Positions 1-63,766 of a stretch of DNA of 64,000 nt are shown here, piece by piece. Source of the stretch: Leucoraja ocellata. Lineage: Eukaryota. How positions within the stretch are numbered: position 1 is the first letter of the stretch; each line of letters begins with the position of its first letter. Location: positions 1,364,001 through 1,428,000 of the forward strand of contig JAWMAR010000392.1 of the NCBI GenBank assembly GCA_036785375.1. Direction: 5' to 3'. Position numbers and translations under genes: made by a program. A model generated the notes under the pieces. The model was given only the letters and a program-made list of their open reading frames with translations, did no database searches and had not been told where the DNA came from.

Positions 1-100
1 GACTACTGGGACAAGGAGACCCAGAGATTGATCAATCGACACAAGTTGTACATGGCCAATGTCCAGATCGCAATGCAACGATCTAACCACAGCAAGATGG
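1..100 (+). CDS. MHC class I alpha1 exon, 3' part (DYWDKETQRLINRHKLYMANVQIAMQRSNHSKM)
   Basis: Frame-1 translation aligns ungapped to class I residues 58-90: Y59, W60, R84 (non-mammalian type), N86 sequon NHS. Donor G|GTGCGT at 101. Confidence 0.92.
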
Positions 101-2435: not shown

Positions 2436-2711
2436 GGGTGAACTACCTGCAGTATACATCGGGCTGCAGTGTCACGGACAACGGGTTAGTGAGCGGGGTG
2501 CGCCAGTACGCCTTCAACGGCCAGGACCTGATCAGTTTCGACTTCGAGCAGTCCATCTGGGTGACCGCCTCCCCCTTGGCCTTGAGCACGCGGGACAAGT
2601 GGAACAGCGACACAGCCAACAACATCTACAAGAAGCATTACACCCAGACGATCTGCGTGGAATGGTTGCAGAAATACCTCAAGTACGGGCACTCCATGCT
2701 ATCTCGCAAAG
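2436..2711 (+). CDS. MHC class I alpha2 exon (276 nt)
   Basis: Acceptor tctctccatgtccag and donor G|GTAGGT. Translation GVNYLQYTSGC...QYAFNGQDLISFD...TRDKW...HYTQTICVEWLQKYLKYG has C101/C164, T143, K146, W147, Y159, W167 and Y171. Confidence 0.96.
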
Positions 2712-3604: not shown

Positions 3605-3844
3605 AGCGAGGAAGGGTCCTTATGAGGAAGGGTCCCGACGTTGCTGATCTATTTCCTCCACAGTTGCTGCCTGACCTGTTGAGTTGCTCCAACACTTTGG
3701 GTTTTGCGTCAAACCCCAAACTGCCTTCATGGGTGACTCCACGCCCTCTCGCTGTCTCCCCCATAGTATGGGAACCACTTCCCCACCCGCACACGCGCTG
3801 GGTGATGGGACCCCCCTTCCCTAATGCTAGCCCACTGAGTTATA

Positions 3845-4546
3845 ATTTCCCTTGTCAATTCTTCCCTTCCCTCTCGGTCCACCCCCTCCCCGGGCACTTT
3901 CCCTTGCAACCGCAAGAGATGCAACACTTGTCCCTTTACCTCCCCCCTTGACTCCGTTCAAGGACCCAAGCAATCGTTCCAGGTACGACAGAGGTTTACC
4001 TGCATCTCTTCCAACCTCATCTATTGCGTCCGCTGCTCTAGATGTCAGCAGATCTATATCGGTGAGACCAAGCGGAGGTTGGGCGATCGTTTCGCCGAAC
4101 ACCTCCGCTCGGTCCGCAATAACCAAGCTGACCTCCCGGTGGCTCAGCACTTCAACTCCCCCTCCCACTCCGTCTCCGACCTCTCTGTCCTGGGTCTCCT
4201 CCATGGCCACAGCGAGCAGCACCGGAAATTGGAGGAACAGCACCTCATATTCCGTTTGGGGAGTCTGCACCCTGGGGGCATGAACATCGAATTCTCCCAA
4301 TTTTGTTAGTCCTTGCTGTCTCCTCCCCTTCCTCAACCCCCCTGCTGTCTCCTCCCATCCCCCAGCCTTCAGGCTACTCCCCCTTTTCCCTTTCTTGTCC
4401 CCGCCCCCGATCAGTCTGAAGAAGGGTTTCGGCCCGAAACGTTGCCTATTTCCTTCGCTCCATAGATGCTGCTGCACCCGCTGAGTTTCTCCAGCTTTTT
4501 TGTGTAACCTTCGATTCTCCAGCTTCTGCAGTTCCCTCTTAAACAC
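3845..4546 (+). mobile_element. Penelope-like element 3' fragment: GIY-YIG endonuclease, 3' UTR and hammerhead motif (4416-4443)
   Basis: In-frame TFPCNRKRCNTC...NLIYCVRCSRCQQIYIGETKRRLGDRFAEH...VAQHFN...HPGGMN, followed by CTGAAGAAGGGTTTCGGCCCGAAACGTT. Confidence 0.92.
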
Positions 4547-11797: not shown

Positions 11798-12074
11798 CTG
11801 TTCCAGATGTGTTGGTCTACTCCAGGAGGTCTCCCGACGGTCAGAAACGGGCTCTCCACTGCCTGGCCACTGGCTTTTTCCCGCAGACCATCAACATGAG
11901 TTGGTTCAGGGACGGGCAGCCTGTCCCCGCCAACAAAAACTCTGGCGTTCTACCCAACCACGACGGCACCTATCAGATGAGGGTAACTCTGCTGATGGAG
12001 CCTGCAGAGAGACGGGAGCACATCTGCCGCGTGTGGCACGGCAGCAGGCCCAGAAGGAATGGTCGTTGTCTGGG
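11798..12074 (+). CDS. MHC class I alpha3 (Ig C1) exon, 277 nt, with apparent +1 frameshift near 12049-12051
   Basis: Acceptor ttgctcttttctctcag and donor G|GTAAGT. LHCLATGFFPQTINMSWFRDG...VLPNHDGTYQ...ICRVWH is a C1-set signature. Deleting one C in AGGCCCAGAA gives ...RPEGMVVVW and a 276-nt phase-1 exon. Confidence 0.93.
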
Positions 12075-13910: not shown

Positions 13911-15771
13911 AATCATAAAGGACACAGGCCATTGTTAGCTCTTTGCTGGGTGAAAACGAGAAGCTGGTGCAACTTGGGTGGGGGAGGGATGAGAGAGAGG
14001 GAATGCCGGGGTTACTTGCAGTTATATAAATCAATATTCATACTAGGGTATGAATGTCACCCGATCCTTCTCTCCAGAGATCCTGCCTGTCTCGCTGAGT
14101 TACTCCAGCTTTTTGTGTCTATCTTCGGTTTAAACGAGCACCTACAGTTCCGTCCTACATGTGACAACCTCTGATGCCACTTTCAGGGAACTGTATATCC
14201 GTTCTCTTAGTTCCCTATGCTCTACCACTCTCCTCAGGGTCCTACCGTGTGAAAGTGCTGCCCTTGTTCGACTTCTCAAAATACAAGTCTGCGGACTTGT
14301 CTGAATTAAACTCCATTTGCCAATCCTCGGCCCATCTGCCCAGCTGATTAGGATCACACTGTAATTCTTGATAACCAAAAGATTATTTTTTAAAAATGCA
14401 ATAGGAAACTGAGGGGCAACTTTTTTACACAAGGGGTGGTTGGCATATGGTACGAGCTGCTGGTGGAGGTAGTTGAGGCAGGTACTATCACAACATTTAA
14501 CAAGCATTTAGACAGGCACATGACTAGGACAGGTTTAGAGGGATATGGGCCAAATGCAGACAGGTGGGACTAGTGTGATGGGGTGGGTTGGTCTGCATAG
14601 GGAAAATTCGGCTGATGGGCCTGTTTCCACATTGTATGAGTCTCTGACTCTAATCATCTTCCCTCTCTACAATACAACTACTTTAGTGTCATCTGCAAAC
14701 TTACTAGCCATGACTTGTACATTCTCATCCAATTTATAGGAAGGAACTGCAGATGCTGGTTTAAACTGAAGATAGACACAAAATGCTGCTCGGCTGGACA
14801 GGCAACATCTCTGGATAGACAATAAACAAAAAAAATAGACAATAGACAATAGACTTTCGGCCCTTCGAGGCTATACCGCCATTCAATGTGATTATGGCTG
14901 ATCATCCCCAATCAGTACCCCATTCCTGCCTTCTCCCCATATCCCCTGACTCCGCTATTTTAAGAGCCCTATCTAGCTCTCTCTTGAAAGCATGCAGAGA
15001 ACCGGCCTCCACCGCCTTCTGAGGCAGAGAATTCCACAGACTCACCACTCTCTGTGAGAAAAAGTGTTTCTTCATCTCCGTTCTAAATGGCTTACCGTTA
15101 TTCCTAAACCATGGCCCCTGGTTCTGGACTCCCCCTAACATCGGGAACATGCTTCCAGCATCTAACGTGTCCAAACCCTTAACAATAGAAGGAATGTGTG
15201 ATGTTTCGAGTCGAGATCCTTCTTCAGACTCAACCCAAAACGTCACCCATTCCTTCTCTCCAGAGATGCTGCCTGTCCCGCTGGGTTACTCCACCATTAT
15301 ATGTCTACATTTTCATCCAAGTCGTTAATAGAGATCAACATCGGCAATGGGTTCAGCGCGGATCCCTGATGCATACCACTGGTCACGGGCTCCAGTCCAA
15401 ACAACCCAACCTTACATCATCTTCAGATGCTTCCTACCATCAAGTTTATTGTGTATCCAGAGAGAGGGAGAGAGGCCAGGAGGGTGGGATTTAGTTTAGT
15501 GTAGAGATACAGCACGGAAACAGACCCAGGCTGACCATCTATTCACATATTCACAGTAGTTTCTATGTTATGTCATATTCTCATTCACTCGCTACATACC
15601 AGGGACAATTTACAGAGGGGTAATTGACCTACAAACCCGCACGTTTTTCTTGGGATGTGGTGAAAAGCGGGAGCACCGGAGGAAAGCCACGCGGTCACAT
15701 GGAGAATGTTCCACTCCACACACAGACAGGCACCAGAGGTCGGGATTGAACCTGTGTCTCTGGCGCTGTGT

Positions 15772-17356: not shown

Positions 17357-17488
17357 ACCAAGGTGGCCGTGTTCCCATATGGCTAGTGATCCCGGCTATC
17401 CTGCTGCTTCTGTGCACACTGGGGGTTGTTTTCTACTTGTGGAAGAATGGTTCGGGAGTGGTGAAAGGCTGCTGCTCGTTTGGCAAGG
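17357..17488 (+). CDS. MHC class I connecting peptide/transmembrane exon (DQGGRVPIWLVIPAILLLLCTLGVVFYLWKNGSGVVKGCCSFGK)
   Basis: Acceptor cttcttgtttaaccag, donor G|GTAAGA, 132 nt, phase 1-1. About 22 hydrophobic residues followed by K. Lies in a unique island between repeats and is absent from the ORF track. Confidence 0.9.
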
Positions 17489-20866: not shown

Positions 20867-20896
20867 GATCCAGTGAGATTAACTCTTCCTCATCAG
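20867..20896 (+). CDS. Short cytoplasmic exon (GSSEINSSSS)
   Basis: Acceptor cttttcatttgtttag, donor CAG|GTAAGT, 30 nt, phase 1-1, Ser-rich like class I tail exons. Confidence 0.82.
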
Positions 20897-21745: not shown

Positions 21746-22289
21746 CATATCCATAATCCATATCCCTCCATTCCTATTGTATCCATATACCTATCCAAAA
21801 ACCTTTGAAATGCCACTTTCCTATCTGCTTTAACCACCTTGGCCGTTTGTTCTAGGCAGTCACCCCCCCTTGTGTGAGGTGGGTTGAGGGGAGGGTGGGG
21901 AATGTGGTGGTGGGGAGAGAGAAGGACGTGGGACGGTGTTTAGTTTTGGGATACAGCATGGAAACTGACTCTTCAGCCCACCGGGTCCACACCAGCCATC
22001 GTGCACATGTTCACTAGTTCAACGTCACCCCACTTTTGCACCCACCCCCTGACACCAGGGTCAATTAGCCTACAAACCTTCGGGATGTGGGAGGAAACCA
22101 GGACAGCCAGAGGAAACCCACCTGGTCGCAGGGAGAACGTGCAAACTCCACACACGCAGCACCCGAGGTCAGGATGGAACCTGGGTCTCTGTCACTGTGA
22201 GGGAGCAGGTCCACCCACTGCGCCAACTGTGCTGTCTGATCATACATCTTCCCTGGAATTTCCACTCACCTTGTTACTCTCCATCTTAG

Positions 22290-22411
22290 GTTCCACCAGC
22301 AGTCAGTCTTTGCAGAAGGATGTAACAGCAGGAGGAGTTGACACGAACGACAAAGAGAAAATGCTTCCCAAGTCAGACTCCCCAATCATGAAGTCTGACT
22401 GCCCAGTCTGA
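22290..22411 (+). CDS. Terminal cytoplasmic exon (GSTSSQSLQKDVTAGGVDTNDKEKMLPKSDSPIMKSDCPV*)
   Basis: Acceptor ttactctccatcttag, in phase with the previous exon, open to TGA at 22409-22411. Confidence 0.75.
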
Positions 22412-22500
22412 AGAAGGGTCTCGACCCCGAAACGTCATCCATTCCTTCTCTCCAGCGATGCTGCCTGCCCCACTGAGTTACTCCAGCATTTTGTGTCTGT
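22404..22500 (+). ncRNA. Penelope-derived repeat with hammerhead motif overlapping the class I stop codon
   Basis: CTGAAGA at 22408-22414 contains the TGA at 22409-22411; GGGT-CTCG-ACCC-C-GAAACGTC runs to 22436. Confidence 0.7.
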
Positions 22501-22528
22501 CCCCAATCATGGACCCTGTTCGAGTGGA

Positions 22529-23376
22529 CAAGATACAAGATACAAGATACAATTTAATTGTCATTTGGACCCCTTGAGGTCCAAACGAAATGCCGTTTCT
22601 GCAGCCATACATTACATTACAACAAATAGACCCAAGACACAACATAATTTACATAAACATCCATCACATCGCTGTGATGGAAGGCCAAAAAAACCTATCT
22701 CTCCACTACACTCCCCCCCGCCCCCCCCCCCCATCTCAGAGTCAAAGTCAAAGCCCCCGGCTGGCGATGGCGATTGTCCCGCGGCCATTAAAGCCACGCC
22801 GGGTGGTGCGAGGTCGCACACCGGGTCTTGGTGTTAGAGCCCCCGGCGTGTGCTCGCAGAGTCCCGCAGCCATTCCAAGCCGCGCGGGGCGGTGCTGTCA
22901 GGCCCCGCTCCAGGAGCTCTTCAACCCCGCAACTCGGGCGGGGGAAGTCGCCGTTGCGAGAGCCCTGAAAAGCGGTCTCCCTCCAGGGACCCGCGGGCTC
23001 CCGGTGCCGCCGTCCACCAGACCCGCAGTTGAAGCCACCGACTCTCCGGAGGTCGGGCCGCAGCAGCAGCAGCGCTCCTCCACCGCTCCACCCGCTCCGG
23101 ACTCGGCCAGCTCCGTGACGGTGAGTCGTCGGCACCAGAGTCCCCGGTCTCTTCCTGTTGGAGGCCGCTCCTCGTTGCAGCCCCAACGATAACGGAGACA
23201 GACAAGAAAAGGTCGGGTCTCCCGTGCAGGGAGAGATTTAAAAAGTTTCCCCCTCCCTCCCACACACACATCCCAACAAAAAATAACAAAAACTACATAG
23301 AAACATAGACAGAAAATAATAAAAACGCGGACGGGCTGCAGAGGCCGCTGCTGACGAGAGTCGCGCCGCCTACCGG
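22529..23376 (-). mobile_element. GC/CpG-rich non-coding retroelement with (TATCTTG)n tail; second copy at 50856-51482 (+)
   Basis: Two highly similar copies; 3' hairpin plus GACAATTAAA plus microsatellite as in Rex1/Babar ends; no recognisable protein. Confidence 0.8.
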
Positions 23377-31671: not shown

Positions 31672-32030
31672 GGTAGACAAAATAGCTGGAGAAACTCAGC
31701 GGGTGCAGCAGCATCTATGGAGCGAAGGAAATAGGCAACGTTTCGGGTCGAAACCCTTCTTCAGACCGGTACCACAAATGTCTTTAAACTATTCAGTGTT
31801 CAAGAAGGAACTGCAGATGCTGGAAGATCGAAGGTACACAAAAATGCTGGAGAAACTCAGCGGGTGCAGCAGCATCTATGGAGTGAAGGAAATAGGTGAC
31901 ATTTCGGGCCAAAACCCTTCTTCAGACTGATCAGTCTGAAGAAGGGTTTCGGCCCGAAACATCGCCTATTTCCTTCGCTCCATAGATGCTGCTGCACCCG
32001 CTGAGATTCTCCAGCATTTTTGTGTACCTT
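31672..32030. repeat. Cluster of Penelope 3'-end repeats with a palindrome of about 195 bp centred on TGATCA (31928-31933)
   Basis: Arms 31835-31930 and 31931-32030 are reverse complements with few mismatches; each carries the hammerhead motif. Confidence 0.88.
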
Positions 32031-39122: not shown

Positions 39123-42009
39123 CCTCCCACTAGTTTAACAGGTTTAGTCAGATTCCAGTGGTTGGTGAGAGTGAATTTGAGAGCAGGACGCAGAGCAAGC
39201 AGACGCAATAAATGAGGCAGGTACTTGTTTCAGTCTGAAACAAACATGACTCTGCGTATCTGTGAAGAGGGAGGCGTAGATGGGAGTTCGCATGGTGGCG
39301 CCTTTGATTTGTAGAAATGACAAAGGAAATTGTCCTTCAGGCTGCCCTGCTGTGGGACGGGGAAGGTGTGGATGAATCAAACGGCACCAGGTGACTGTGA
39401 TAACAGATATTCACAAGTCAGAAGTTTATTGCCATTGGCACAAGTACAGCAGGACACAAAAAAGAACACAAAGTTGTGGAGGGAGCAACTACACATATCT
39501 GGAGAACATGTGTAGGAAGGAACTGCAGATGCTGGTTGAAACTGAAGCTGGAGTAACTCAGCGGGACAGGCAGCATCTCTGGAGAGAAGGAACGGGTGAC
39601 ATTTCGGGTCGAGACCCCTTGTTCAGACTCTTTCGTGACTCACTTTCGTGTCTGAAGAAAGGTCTCAACCAAAAAACGTCACCTATCTGACGTGAGTCTG
39701 AGGAAGGGGTTTTGGCCCGAAACGTTGCCTATTTCTTTCGCTCCATAGATGCTGCCTCACCTGTTCAGTTTCTCCAAGTCAAGTCAAGTCAAGTCAAGTT
39801 TATTTGTCACATACACATACGAGATGTTTGAGAAACAAGGGGACATGACTTGAGAATTAAGGGACTGAAGTTTAGGGGTAACATGAGGGGGAACTTCTTT
39901 ACTCAGAGAGTGGTGGCTGTGTGGAATGAGCTTCCAGTGAAGGTGGTGGAGGCAGGTTCGTTTTTATCATTTAAAAATAAATTGGATAGTTATATGGACG
40001 GGAAAGGTATGGAGGGTTATGGTCTGAGCGCAGGTGTATGGGACTAGGGGAGAATATGTGTTCGGCACGGACTAGAAGGGTCGAGATGGCCTGTTTTCGT
40101 GCTGTAATTGTTATATGGAGATGTGCAGTGAAATGAAAGTGGCAATGTTTGCGGACTTTTGTGCAAAAGACAAACAACAAAACAACCAAACAAATTATAA
40201 ACACAATCATAACACACATATTCTTTTTTGCAGCATTTTTGTCTACCTATCCATGTTCTTCAGAGATGCTGCCAGTGCTGTCTCTGTGGAGTTTGGTGAC
40301 TGAGTGACCATGCAAACTCAACACAGATAGCATTGAATCCTGGTCTCTGGTTCTGCGTTGTAGCAGCTCAACCAGCTGTGCCACCTTGCCGCCTGTTTGG
40401 ACAAGCGTGACTTCAATGCCAGGCGACAATACCTTCTGTAGAATTGGGCAGCTCACTATGGCGTAGCAGTAGAGTTGCTACCTTACAGCGCCAGTCACCC
40501 AGGTTCCATCCTGACTATTGGTGCTGTCTGTACGGAGTTTGCACATACCCCCTGTGACCGCGTGGGCTTTCTCCAGGTGCTACAGCTTCCTCCCACACTG
40601 TAAAGATGTGCGGGTTTGTAAGTTAATTGGCTTCGGTAAAACAAATTGTAGATTGTCCCTAGTGTGTAGGACAGTGCTGGTGTACGGGGTGATCGCTGGT
40701 CGGTGCAGACTCAATGGGCCGAAGGGCCTGTTTACGCACTGTATCTCTAAAGTCTAAACTAGTCCCAAACCTATACAGCACATTTCCCCACAGGACCTTG
40801 AGGCAGGGACAATCCCATTAGACCACTGCTGCCACTATTCTCATTATCTACAATTGACTTTTCTCCACAGTTCTTCCGTCCCACTTACATAGAAACATAG
40901 AAATTAGGTGCAGGAGTAGAGGCTATTCTGCCCTTCGAGCCTGCACCGCCATTCGATATGATCATGGCTGATCATCCAACTCAGTATCCCATCCCTGCCT
41001 TCTCTCCATACCCCCTGATCCCTTTAGCCACAAGGTCCACATCTAACTCCCTCTTAAATATAGCCAATGGACTGTGGCCTCAACTACCTTCTGTGGCAGA
41101 GAATTCCACAGATTCACCACTCTCTGCGTGAAACCATCTCGACCATCTCACCTTGGTACCACAGAGAGATAGAAACATAGAAACATAGAAATTAGGTGCA
41201 GGAGTAGGCCATTCGGCCCTTCGAGCCTGCACCGCCATTCAATATGATCACGGCTGATCATCCAACTCAGTATCCCGTACCTGCCTTCTCTCCATACCCT
41301 CTGATCCCCTTAGCCACAAGGGCCACATCTAACTCCCTCTTAAATATAGCCAATGAACTGGCCTCAACTACCCTCTGTGGCAGAGAGTTTCAGAGATTCA
41401 CCACTCTCTGTGTGAAAAAAGTTCTTCTCATCTCAGTTTTAAAGGATTTCCCCCTTATCCTTAAGCTGTGACCCCTTGTCCTGGACTTCCCTAACATCGG
41501 GAACAATCTTCCTGCATCTAGCCTGTCCAACCCCTTAAGAATTTTGTAAGTTTCTATAAGATCCCCTCTCAATCTTCTAAATTCTAGAGAGTATAAACCA
41601 AGTCTATCCAGTCTTTCTTCATAAGACAGTCCTGACATCCCAGGAATCAGTCTGGTGAACCGTCTCTGCACTCCCTCTATGGCAATAATGTCCTTCCTCA
41701 GATTTGGAGACCAAAACCGCACAGATACCGCACAGAAACAGGCCCTTCAGCCCACTGTGTTTGTGCTGACAATCAATCATCCACATGCACTAATCAATAA
41801 TAATCCTACTTTATTCTGCGTACAGTTCTGGACGCTGCATCAGGAGCAGGATGTGGAGTCTTTGGAGAGGGTGCAGAAGGCCACAACCCTCCCTCACCCA
41901 AGATACACCAGCTTCTCGTTCACACCTGCAAACACCTGACAATGGCCTGTTTACTTTCACTGTTACTTTTTTGCATATCTTTTATTCAATCGTTCTCTAT
42001 CTATCTATT

Positions 42010-50855: not shown

Positions 50856-52343
50856 CCGGTGCTACAACTCACCGTCGCCGTCGCGGGGCTGGCCGAGTCC
50901 GGAGCGGGTGGAGCGGTGGAGGAGCGCTGCTGCTGCTGCTGCTGCTGCTGCTGCGGCCCGACCGGAGAGTCAGAGGCTGCAACTGCGGGTCTGCGGACGG
51001 CGGCACCGGGAGCCCGCGGGTCCCTGGAGGGAGACCGCTTTTCAGGGCTCTCGCAACGGCGACTTCTCCCGCCCGAGTTGCGGGGTCGAAGAGCTCCTGG
51101 AGCGGGGCCTGACATCATCGCCCCGCGCGGCTTGGAATGGCCGCGGGACTCTGCGAGCGCACGCTGGGGGCTCTAACACCAAGACCCGGTGTGCGACCTC
51201 GCACCACCCGGCGTGGCTTTAATGGCCGCGGGACAATCGCTATCGCCAGCCGGGGGCTTTGACTTTGACTCTGACATCGGGGGGGGGGGGGGGGGGGGGG
51301 GGGGGAGAGTGCAGTGGAGAGATAAGCTTTTTTGGCCTTCCATCACAGCAATGTGATGGATGTTTATGTAAATTATGTTGTGTCTTGGGTCTATGTGTTT
51401 GTAATGTATGGCTGCAGAAACGGCATTTCGTTTGGACCTCAAGGGGTCCAAATGACAATTAAATGTATCTTGTATCTTGTATCCCTCCGTTGACTCCATC
51501 TACACTTCATGCTGCCTCGGCAAGGCCGCAAACACAATAAAAAAAACAGTCTCACCCCGGACACTCCCTCTTCTCATCTCTCCCATCACGCAAGACGTAC
51601 AGAATTCTGAAAATACACACCTTCAGCTTCAGAGACGGTTTCTTCCCAGTTGTTAGCAGGCAATTGGACCGTCCTCTCACTGACTCGAGAGGGTCCTGAC
51701 CTCCCATCTACCACATTGGAGACCATTGGACTATGTTTAATGGACTTTGTCAGTCTTTACCGTGCGCTTAAACGTTATTCCCGTTATCCTGCTGCGGGCG
51801 CAGCGTGTACTCTCGGTGTGGAGCGGGCGAACCCTCGCTGGGGCTCGCCGGAGGGGAGCGCTCCATTTCGCTGGCCCACGGCAGCCGGCAGCCTGAAGCC
51901 GCGGTCTGTAGATCTCAGCTGGCGTGGCGTCTGCAGCCCGGGATCTCACGTTGGGAACCTGGGGAGTAGAAGAAGCTTCCACCGCCGGCCCGCGGCCAAC
52001 TTCTACCGCGGACCCGGCGTGGACTTACCATCAGCCCTGGAGGGGATCTTCAACCGCCGGCCCTGCGGTCTGCGGTGCTTCTGGCTGCGGCATGGCGGGA
52101 CTTGAAATCTTCGACCGCTGGCCTGCGGCCTACACCAACCTGAAGCCCGGTCTACGGTGTGGAGGCACTAATTCAGGACTTACCTGGACTTACTTGTCTA
52201 CACATCTGGACACCCGCAGCAGCGGCTGTGGAGGGTTGAGGTCGCGACCACGGGGGAAAAGGAGGAGGACTGGCCAGTTTTGTGCCTTCCTCCAACAGTG
52301 ATGAATGCTGTGGTGGATGTTTGTGTTACGTTTTTATTGTGTA

Positions 52344-61024: not shown

Positions 61025-62202
61025 GACACATAGAAACATAGAAATTAAGTGCAGGAGTAGGACATTCGGCCCTTCGAGCCTGCACCGCCATTCAATATGA
61101 TCATGGCTGATCATCCAGCTCAGTATCCTGTACCCGCCTTCTCTCCATACCCCCTCATCCCTTTAGCCACAAGGGCCACATCTAACTCCCTCTTAAATAT
61201 AGCCAATGAACTGGCCTCAACTACCATATAACAATTACAGCACGGAAACAGGCCATCTCGACCCTTCTAGTCCGTGCCGAACACATAATCTCCCCTAGTC
61301 CCATATACCTGCGCTCAGACCATAACCCTCCATTCCCTTCCCATCCATATAACTATCCAATTTATTTTTAAATGATAAAAACGAACCTGCCTCCACCACC
61401 TTCAATGGAAGCTCATTCCACACAGCTACCTTCTGTGGCAGAGAGTTCCAGAGACTCACCACTATCTGTGTGAAAAATGTTTCCCTCATCTCAGTACTAA
61501 AGGATTTCCCCTTTATCCTTAAACTGTGTCCCGCTTGTCCTGGACTTCCACAACATCGGGAACAATCTGCCTGCATCAGACAAATGCAATTCAGGACTTT
61601 TCTCTTCACAAGCAAAGTCAGAATGACGGTTAGTGAAGAATTCGAATAATTTCTGATATGGCAACAATGTATTTGAGCATTGGGTATTGTGACATCACAC
61701 GATGGAATGTTCACCAAGGGCTGGGGTCCTGCAAAGGCATATGTAAATGCATCCATTCCGATTGGACATCTGTGAGCATCAGGCATTGTGACATCACACG
61801 ATGGAACGTTCACTGAGGGGCTGGGGCTGGTGCTGCTTCTGTGGGTGAGAAGCCAGTTTATTTTTGAAATGAAAATACCCTTTGGGGTGAATGTTGAACT
61901 GGTGGCAATTTTCCTATTATGAATTGTATTTTGTATCCACTAATGCCATTGAGTATATAGAAACATAGAAATTAGGTGCAGGAGTAGGCCATTCGGCCCT
62001 TCGAGCCTGCACCGCCATTCAATATGATCATGGCTGATCATCCAACTCAGTATCCCGTACCTGCCTTCTCTCCATACCCCCTGATCCCCTTAGCCACAAG
62101 GGCCACATCTAACTCCCTCTTAAATATAGCCAATGAACTGGCCTCAACTACCCTCTGTGGCAGAGAGTTCCAGAGATTCACCACTCTCTGTGTGAAAAAA
62201 GA

Positions 62203-63766
62203 GATATACTGATCACTCGTGATAGACTCCCATGCTTCTTTAAACTGGTGTAATCTCCCCCCTGTTAGTATTAAGCCCCTACTTTCTATATGCTGGTAGG
62301 AACCATGGTTATGGGTATTTCCTCTGGTTCCCGCCGGTCCAACGAGGCTTGCGCTTGTCTGACGTGGCATTGACGTTGGGGGGTGGCGCATTTTCCATGG
62401 GGTCCGCTCTGGGCCCTGGTCTAAAAAAGACTTACGGTGATAGAATGCGGACCCCGAGCTTTCACCAGTCCCATATGGTAGACGTCGACTGGTGGACGCG
62501 ACGGGGTGCTGCCACTTGGTGTTTATTGTTCTTGGTTTGCTCGTCCCGGGCCCTGCCTTCATGAGACCGAAAGTTTTTGAGGCCTCTTCCATATCCTTCA
62601 TTCGCTTAGTGAGGTCATTGCCAAAGAGCAGTATGGCTGGCTCAGTGGCTGGGGTTTTGCACAACCCCGCAAATTTAGGATTGATGGCAGGTCTTATTAT
62701 TTCTTTACGCAGGTTGTTGATTTCAAATTGTGTATTGCACAACAGCGCGAGAGTATCTTGTTGATTGGTGGTCATGTCGGTGTTGTCCATGGAACGAGCA
62801 AACAAAGTGATGGCTGACGTCAAGAGCCTGAGGATCCGCTGCAGTTTTAGCTCCTGATGTTGGATGTTTGCCCCAACGTGCCCCCAGATTTGCAGTAGGC
62901 ACTTTGAGGGACTTACAGTTCTCTGGAGCTGTATATGTTTCTAAAGTCTCATTGACCACCTGCTTTTGTAGGGCACTGTTGGAGAGGTGGTTGATGCTGG
63001 CCGCTAGTTTGGCCTCTAACGGTCTTCCTGCACGTGGGGTTGCCACGTAGCGGTTCACCACACCCAGCAGCTCTTCCTGTTCCTGCACACCTTGCATACT
63101 CCCGAGATCTTCAGCCATCGTCCCCTCTTCTTGACCAGCCCAGTCCTGGTCACCAAAGCTACCCTCGGGTAAGGAGGAAGCAATGGACAGTGCACAAGGC
63201 ACTGTGGAGGGAGTGTGCCTGACCTCCCCCTGCGAGAGCGCCCCTCACGAGGCGCATCTCACAGGAGCACCTGCTCCAGGAGCCGCTCCAGCGGCTCAGG
63301 CGGCTGTCTCTCCCCCGCCCGGGTGGAGAGACGTCCCCGTCCGATGTGTCGGAAACCACCGGCCGGACCCTTTTCCTGGTAGCTTTACATCCAGCCCGCT
63401 GCTCAGGCGCTAGCGTGGCTGGGCTCGGCAAGGTGTCGGGAATAGCGGAGCGCTCGGTAAGCGGTCCTACCGCCTGTTGCTGCCCCCCCCCCCCCCCCCG
63501 ATGGAACGCTCTTCTGGTGGAGTCGAACGGGGGACAGATTTCTTTGAGAGCCTTTTCTTGGATATACTCATTCTGAAAGCAAAATCAGACGGCTCTCCTT
63601 TCGCAAGTAAAGCCGACCTCAGTTTAACTTACCTGACGGTCCGTCTTTTAAATTGCAGCGGGAGCGCCTGACTCCCGCTGTAGCCGCTGTTGCACTGCTG
63701 GCGTAATGTCGCGCATGCGTGCTGAGTGGGTTCTTCACGTAGTCACTCACGTGACTCCGAAGTAAA
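62203..63766 (-). mobile_element. DIRS1-like tyrosine-recombinase retrotransposon, 5' half (gag-like ORF1 and start of RT), truncated at a CR1-B
   Basis: ...QFEINNLRKEIIRPAINPKFAGLC...LLFGNDL (DIRS ORF1 pattern) and GGRLHQFKEAWESITSDQY (DIRS pol N-terminus); frameshifted. Confidence 0.78.

Follow-up and report, generated by a model that had tools for sequence, protein, structure and literature searches.

A repeat fragment of putative Penelope-type origin at the stop codon of a skate MHC class I gene

The MHC class I heavy-chain gene analyzed here, from the skate Leucoraja ocellata, very probably owes its stop codon to a fragment of a putative Penelope-type element that is likely to have arrived by ordinary retrotransposition, and the hammerhead motif carried by the fragment is predicted to be an inactive relic. 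The fragment, a 12-nt duplication around it and an in-frame TGA are present in the 64,000-nucleotide stretch of DNA analyzed (hereafter the window, to which all coordinates refer); the proteins of relatives end at this TGA (22409-22411), and contigs of spliced type run through it. A target-primed insertion would have generated the duplication together with a short host-templated filler, and six residues would have taken the place of the end of a skate tail that had been lengthened before. The overlap of the stop with the hammerhead core may follow simply from the 5' edge of the repeat family, which lies a few letters before CUGA, and from the reading frame: read in sense, the insert meets a stop within the core in one frame and ahead of it in another, and the third frame is open. 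The motif itself is predicted not to cleave, as it would need a second copy, its helix I has 2 bp, its helix II has gained a C and another fold is preferred. The locus offers a small example of an immune protein in skates whose C-terminal six residues and stop were rewritten by a repeat, and the insertion is a possible lineage marker. A literature search, in which subscription journals were thinly covered, found no paper on this insertion locus in skate class I.

The class I gene and the insertion in its last exon

The plus strand of the window holds most of the gene, from the end of alpha-1 through the last exon, and the alpha-1/alpha-2, C1-set alpha-3, transmembrane and cytoplasmic exons that make up class I heavy-chain architecture were all found:

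1..100, plus strand: alpha-1 exon, 3' part, the gene being cut by the window start (tblastn with P0015, 94%; GT donor after it)
2436..2711, plus strand: alpha-2 exon, 276 nt (Pfam MHC_I, E 7e-18; 97% to P0015)
11798..12074, plus strand: alpha-3 exon, 277 nt as assembled (Pfam C1-set; length and translation)
17357..17488, plus strand: transmembrane exon, 132 nt (hydropathy scan; tblastn 88%)
20867..20896, plus strand: cytoplasmic exon, 30 nt, serine-rich (AG/GT ends, translation)
22290..22411, plus strand: last exon, coding part, with the end KSDCPV-stop (sequence and translation; contigs start at 22288)

The 30-nt cytoplasmic exon is present in isoform X1 and missing from X2 of the Leucoraja models (P0014 versus P0015), and the nearest named relatives of the gene are XP_055521806/7 of Leucoraja erinacea and XP_032903621 of Amblyraja radiata. 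UDA is described, in the available part of PMC10751288, as a single-copy nonclassical class I gene of elasmobranchs. As in that lineage, the protein search returned a single close match in each shark or ray species, and only 9 of 169 alpha-1/alpha-2 positions are variable among the 12 proteins compared, a set with no labelled UDA reference. Because of the single match per species and this low variation, the gene appears compatible with a nonclassical gene such as UDA (PMC10751288, same part). PMC6523485, which deals with trout genes that bear the same names, was left aside as a reference. Database models from three species (P0003, P0005 and P0013) merge it with a neighbouring class I gene, and class I genes therefore form a tandem cluster. 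LINE-like fragments fill the introns, and the minus-strand ORF pieces at 62047-63584 (62047-62940 and nearby) presumably resemble a retroelement protein other than these fragments.

The last exon (22290-22411) ends in KMLPKSDSPIMKSDCPV-stop, as read from the sequence by script, and the following features surround this end:

22379..22390, plus strand: left copy of the 12-nt target-site duplication
22391..22402, plus strand: junction filler, codons K-S-D-C, absent from other repeat copies
22403..22499, plus strand: putative Penelope-type terminal-repeat fragment, about 97 nt (repeat-family BLAST match, to 22499/22500)
22409..22411, plus strand: stop TGA, positions U4-G5-A6 of the hammerhead core
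22500..22511, plus strand: right copy of the 12-nt target-site duplication
22512..22528, plus strand: unique right flank, sole remnant of the pre-insertion continuation, without self-BLAST match
22532..23124, minus strand: second, separate dispersed repeat (91% identical to 50875-51483 across 618 letters), breaking into the right flank and preceded, after 22528, by a short tandem run

A previous sequence-only reading had proposed that the last exon runs into a Penelope-derived repeat at ...TGC CCA GTC TGA, and that the class I stop is the UGA of its hammerhead core; both points stand, since the junction is seen in the sequence, the repeat is matched to its family and the TGA (22409-22411) lies inside CTGAAGA (22408-22414). 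The same reading had reported a duplication at 22380-22390 and 22501-22511, which is indeed present on both sides but extends over 12 nt, from 22379 and from 22500. A duplication of at least 12 nt at the same spacing occurs in 3 of 1269 control window pairs, and its position bordering a family-shared segment is as expected of a retroposed insertion. The inserted stretch spans 22391-22499 and, given this start, all six C-terminal residues are new. Family similarity begins at 22403, so the fragment supplies P-V-stop and opens the 3' UTR. The preceding K-S-D-C is likely to be host-templated filler, because 22391-22402 is not common to the other copies and a host match lies 21 nt upstream: 22391-22408 agrees with 22370-22387 at 15 of 18 letters, a score equalled at 20 of 63,722 control positions, and the other 17 repeat copies match 22391-22405 at only 2-9 of 15 letters. 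The proposal that a retroelement redefined the C-terminus is accordingly upheld, with six new residues and a stop that are used by the proteins of relatives and by spliced-type contigs.

A BLAST comparison of 22403-22499 against the window yields 31 matches, itself included, 19 of them on the plus strand, or about one match per 2 kb. With 31 matches in 64 kb, landings in last exons are to be expected, and the insertion in the class I gene is likely to be ordinary and neutral. The origin of the family can be approached through one reference piece:

3839..4505, plus strand: end of an endonuclease-type ORF (3839-4309), followed by the same repeat (4412-4505, 82% to the 22403-22499 fragment)

The ORF has a sub-threshold Pfam match to GIY-YIG (E 6.5e-4), and among its 19 homologues one carries RVT_1 (P0045) and one GIY-YIG (P0047). 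Since the copy at 4412-4505 follows an ORF with a GIY-YIG match and with homologues that carry RVT_1 or GIY-YIG, these data lend indirect support to a Penelope-type origin of the repeat, as the terminal repeat of an element with reverse transcriptase and GIY-YIG domains. No full Penelope-like element was found in the 64-kb window. Between 507 and 17,715 contigs per run fit the repeat stretch. Repeat copies on opposite strands lie side by side at 31836-32025 and near 39547-39776 and 15187-15306, those at 31836-32025 making a head-to-head palindrome. The endonuclease-type ORF is also matched by two proteins annotated as 'receptor-transporting protein 3-like', P0029 (the skate Rhinoraja, 71%) and P0040 (the shark Heptranchias, 63%), which could reflect either an annotation artefact or exonisation.

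Use of the new end by related genes and by contigs is consistent. The pattern [RK]S[DG]CP[VA] terminates 14 of the 15 listed members of a 32-member protein cluster, as well as P0001, and the Leucoraja erinacea RefSeq models are among the cluster members that share the six-residue end; a protein search with the tail alone returned just two skate clusters, both already known. Contigs were taken from four of 23 listed runs (X1, X4, X13 and X18), which are RNA by guess or of unrecorded kind, X18 being marked 'probably DNA', and each of which has a contig leaving the genome at a splice site. A contig start at 22288 was seen in 4/4 of these runs and fits splicing from the 30-nt exon, because this exon and the acceptor share their final AG. 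Contig depth was zero in three intron bins in the four runs. Splicing out of the exon before 22404 was looked for; the contigs with the splice signature enter the repeat in all four runs, and in all four the insertion is present. Their ungapped ends fall at 22416 (X1), 22427 (X18), 22447 (X4) and 22459 (X13). The X18 contig differs at 12 of 140 letters and still has the insertion, which must hence predate this divergence and be old and kept. X1 and X18 have depth in the bin 22509-22520 and X4 and X13 have none there; contig depth is uninformative on RNA ends or levels.

The hammerhead motif at the stop codon

The motif that overlaps the stop can be laid out as a degraded minimal hammerhead:

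22406..22438, plus strand: degraded minimal hammerhead
22406-22407 with 22437-22438, plus strand: helix I, U-A and G-U (2 bp)
22408-22414, plus strand: CUGAAGA box, followed by bulged A 22415
22416-22428, plus strand: helix II, 3 bp, with a 7-nt loop
22429-22432, plus strand: GAAA, overlapped by the ACGU palindrome (22432-22435); predicted cut after C22436

The core boxes CUGANGA, GAAA and UH (22435-22436) are all present, and GAAACGTC occupies 22429-22436 on the sense strand. An unpaired A (A22415) lies between positions 9 and 10.1, G22416 may pair with C22428 as G10.1-C11.1, and ACGU forms the palindromic 15.2-16.2 segment used for helix III in a dimer. A script reproduced the coordinates of the cut that had been predicted after 22436, in sense orientation and 25 nt past the stop. 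Also confirmed were the extra C in stem II (CCCC at 22425-22428, where the copy at 2779 has CCC) and the weakness of stem I. A stable helix II is lacking, with 3 bp here against 4 bp in six sibling copies, and helix I has 2 bp, one of them G-U, against 2-3 bp in the siblings and 4-5 bp in the published motif. A Drosophila virilis element is given a 2-bp helix I in the accessible portion of PMC4209133, and since siblings and this element share a short helix I, that trait is by itself no proof of loss.

The pair probability of the hammerhead helices does not exceed 0.03 in three folding contexts, the ribozyme-compatible fold lies 12.1 kcal/mol above the minimum (4.4-10.0 in the six siblings) and the intermolecular dimer helix III is worth about -3.1 kcal/mol, energies that leave out tertiary contacts, proteins and ribosomes. 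The three helices of a canonical or Clec2-type hammerhead are not all formed in cis, helix III being absent. A search with the Rfam hammerhead models gave 0 matches at the gathering threshold, and there was no hammerhead among the 5 matches at E up to 10. No second hammerhead core occurs in the mapped spliced exons, a set that stops short of the mRNA 3' end, and the closest cores in sense that carry the palindrome lie in introns (2779 and 4416) or 5 kb downstream (27508).

The extra C is found ungapped in X4 and X13 and is hence real and no assembly slip; an assembly error, considered as its source, was rejected, as X13 spans the site without gaps and with 31 letters to its right. X18 appears to lack it, judging from five unmatched letters after 22427, and the end CPA of a listed protein, P0020, would imply a change at helix I position 2.1. 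Contigs extend beyond 22436 by 11 letters in X4 and 23 in X13, none by at least 31, the number of letters past the site required to count as bridging. Taken together, the predictions indicate that the hammerhead at 22406-22438, which is more damaged than the six siblings in the window, is probably an inactive relic in which self-cleavage is unlikely. Of the possible self-cleaving motif put forward earlier, then, the intact core boxes stand, but cleavage is made unlikely by the 3-bp helix II, the 2-bp helix I and the gap of 12 kcal/mol.

Two further observations concern the motif in other copies. The copy at 2775-2861, in sense orientation about 65 nt past the alpha-2 donor and 93% identical to the 22403-22499 fragment, is nearer to the consensus, with an intact 4-bp helix II and a GUC site. 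In most of the long copies (18 copies listed) a common 5' edge falls directly ahead of the hammerhead core; this edge is not at the predicted cleavage site, and would be unexplained if cleavage set the end of the element.

Alternative readings of the locus

At 277 nt, the assembled alpha-3 exon carries a +1 frameshift relative to the listed relatives, and the full-length splice of the assembled copy is thus out of frame before the TGA at 22409-22411: the frame shifts near 12049-12051 and meets a stop at 20874-20876, or at 22339-22341 when the 30-nt exon is left out. The reading frame of this copy is hence not intact, and only a splice that skips alpha-3 reaches the TGA. It is conceivable, if rather doubtful, that this copy in the genome represents a pseudogene or null allele, in which case the TGA would, in this individual, end alpha-3-skipping transcripts alone. 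Such a reading can appeal to the good splice sites of the 277-nt exon and to a real isoform of this kind, P0001 (a Logan protein, 5 contigs), in which alpha-2 is joined straight to the transmembrane exon, alpha-3 is skipped in frame and the end is KSDCPV. The surplus base, on the other hand, is likely to sit in or by the C run at 12049-12051, and C runs are the usual place of assembly errors; the remaining exons keep open frames and share 88-97% identity with P0015. Because alpha-3 is in frame in all 15 listed members of the 32-member cluster, an assembly error seems the likelier cause of the frameshift than a null allele. As to the tail, the idea that the insertion truncated a longer cytoplasmic tail, the remains of which would follow the right duplicate, is one that we deem unlikely. 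The right duplicate does continue as IMDPVRVD, with no stop for six unique codons (DPVRVD), but only about 17 letters of it are unique (22512-22528); the second repeat follows after those six codons and makes the length of any former tail unreadable. The longer reading IMDPVRVDKIQ... was rejected as the old tail on the grounds that it enters this repeat. The empty-site reading gives six codons, equal to the six residues added by the insertion. Orthologue tails are shorter: that of Amblyraja ends SPIMV-stop, those of Pristis, Hypanus and Hemitrygon end KMLV-stop, 13 residues before the Leucoraja end, and two shark orthologues stop at the KMLV column, with the qualification that two other sharks (P0005 and P0011) extend about 10 residues more. 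A Rhinoraja model shares MLPKSVSPVM and goes on beyond SPVM, although this model fuses two genes. Given these ends and the stretch shared by the Rhinoraja model, skates seem to have lengthened the tail before the insertion. The first 21 inserted letters hold two occurrences of GTC-TGA, and the Amblyraja V-stop, which equals the GTC-TGA of the insert, may be repeat-derived too.

A reading of greater consequence would see in the motif an active ribozyme, co-opted to cut the mRNA 25 nt past the stop and so to tune class I expression, either in trans with transcripts that bear the repeat or under the control of the terminating ribosome. Its core, bulge and palindrome are intact, the insertion is common to the diverged X18 contig, a hammerhead in the 3' UTR of Clec2 provides a precedent (PMC6155905, in the portion available) and the abundance of the repeat among contigs implies that partner motifs exist. 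We nevertheless hold it to be very improbable. Helix II of 3 bp, a helix I reduced to U-A and G-U, and the fold gap of 12.1 kcal/mol all weigh against it, as does an intermolecular helix III of merely -3.1 kcal/mol. In a published assay of one motif, a single minimal hammerhead gave no detectable cleavage and dimers cleaved at a low level (PMC4209133, accessible portion). The apparent lack of the extra C in X18 would further suggest that the motif has drifted, and the CPA end of P0020 would add a change in helix I, as judged from the protein. Exceedingly unlikely is the particular arrangement in which the core doubles as the stop, so that a ribosome shields it and the cut 25 nt downstream takes place only if the mRNA is untranslated and paired with a repeat transcript; were it true, the shielded core would give a skate class I mRNA a switch that is gated by translation and senses repeats. 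More generally, if the motif did cleave RNA, a ribozyme core that is also a stop codon would tie mRNA cleavage to translation; the evidence points against this. The reading that we retain, that of a repeat fragment supplying the class I stop with an inactive relic of the hammerhead, is compared below with related systems.

Relation to known systems

Transposons can donate stop codons and C-termini to host genes by exonisation, as in Alu exons. The skate insertion is similar to such cases in that the final codons of a host gene, with its stop, come from a repeat, and differs from them in that a putative Penelope-type terminal repeat was inserted straight into an exon, with no new splice site involved.

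The minimal hammerheads of Penelope-like elements were defined by Cervera and De la Pena in 2014 (PMC4209133), the accessible portion of which puts the solitary copies in the thousands for some vertebrate genomes. With the motifs described there, the skate copy shares the CUGANGA and GAAA..UH boxes, the extra base between 9 and 10.1, the G10.1-C11.1 pair, the palindromic 15.2-16.2 segment, the lack of helix III and a link to a GIY-YIG ORF. It departs from them in overlapping a host stop codon, in its 3-bp helix II and 2-bp helix I, and in having no partner in the spliced exons (PMC4209133, same portion).

Another comparison is afforded by the Clec2 genes of mammals, which have a discontinuous hammerhead in their 3' UTR; according to the available portion of PMC6155905, this type III ribozyme has a very long helix I and occurs in several mammals. 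In both cases an immune-related mRNA contains a hammerhead motif in its 3' UTR; unlike that of Clec2 (PMC6155905), the skate motif is a minimal relic of type I, in which neither helix I nor helix III is stable and activity is predicted to be absent. Finally, Penelope-derived hammerhead repeats and retrozymes that overlap exons are reported, in the available part of bioRxiv 10.64898/2026.07.22.740005, to tend towards the last exon and the 3' UTR. The non-LTR retrozymes described in the same part are tandem arrays, whereas the skate copy is single and extends into coding sequence.
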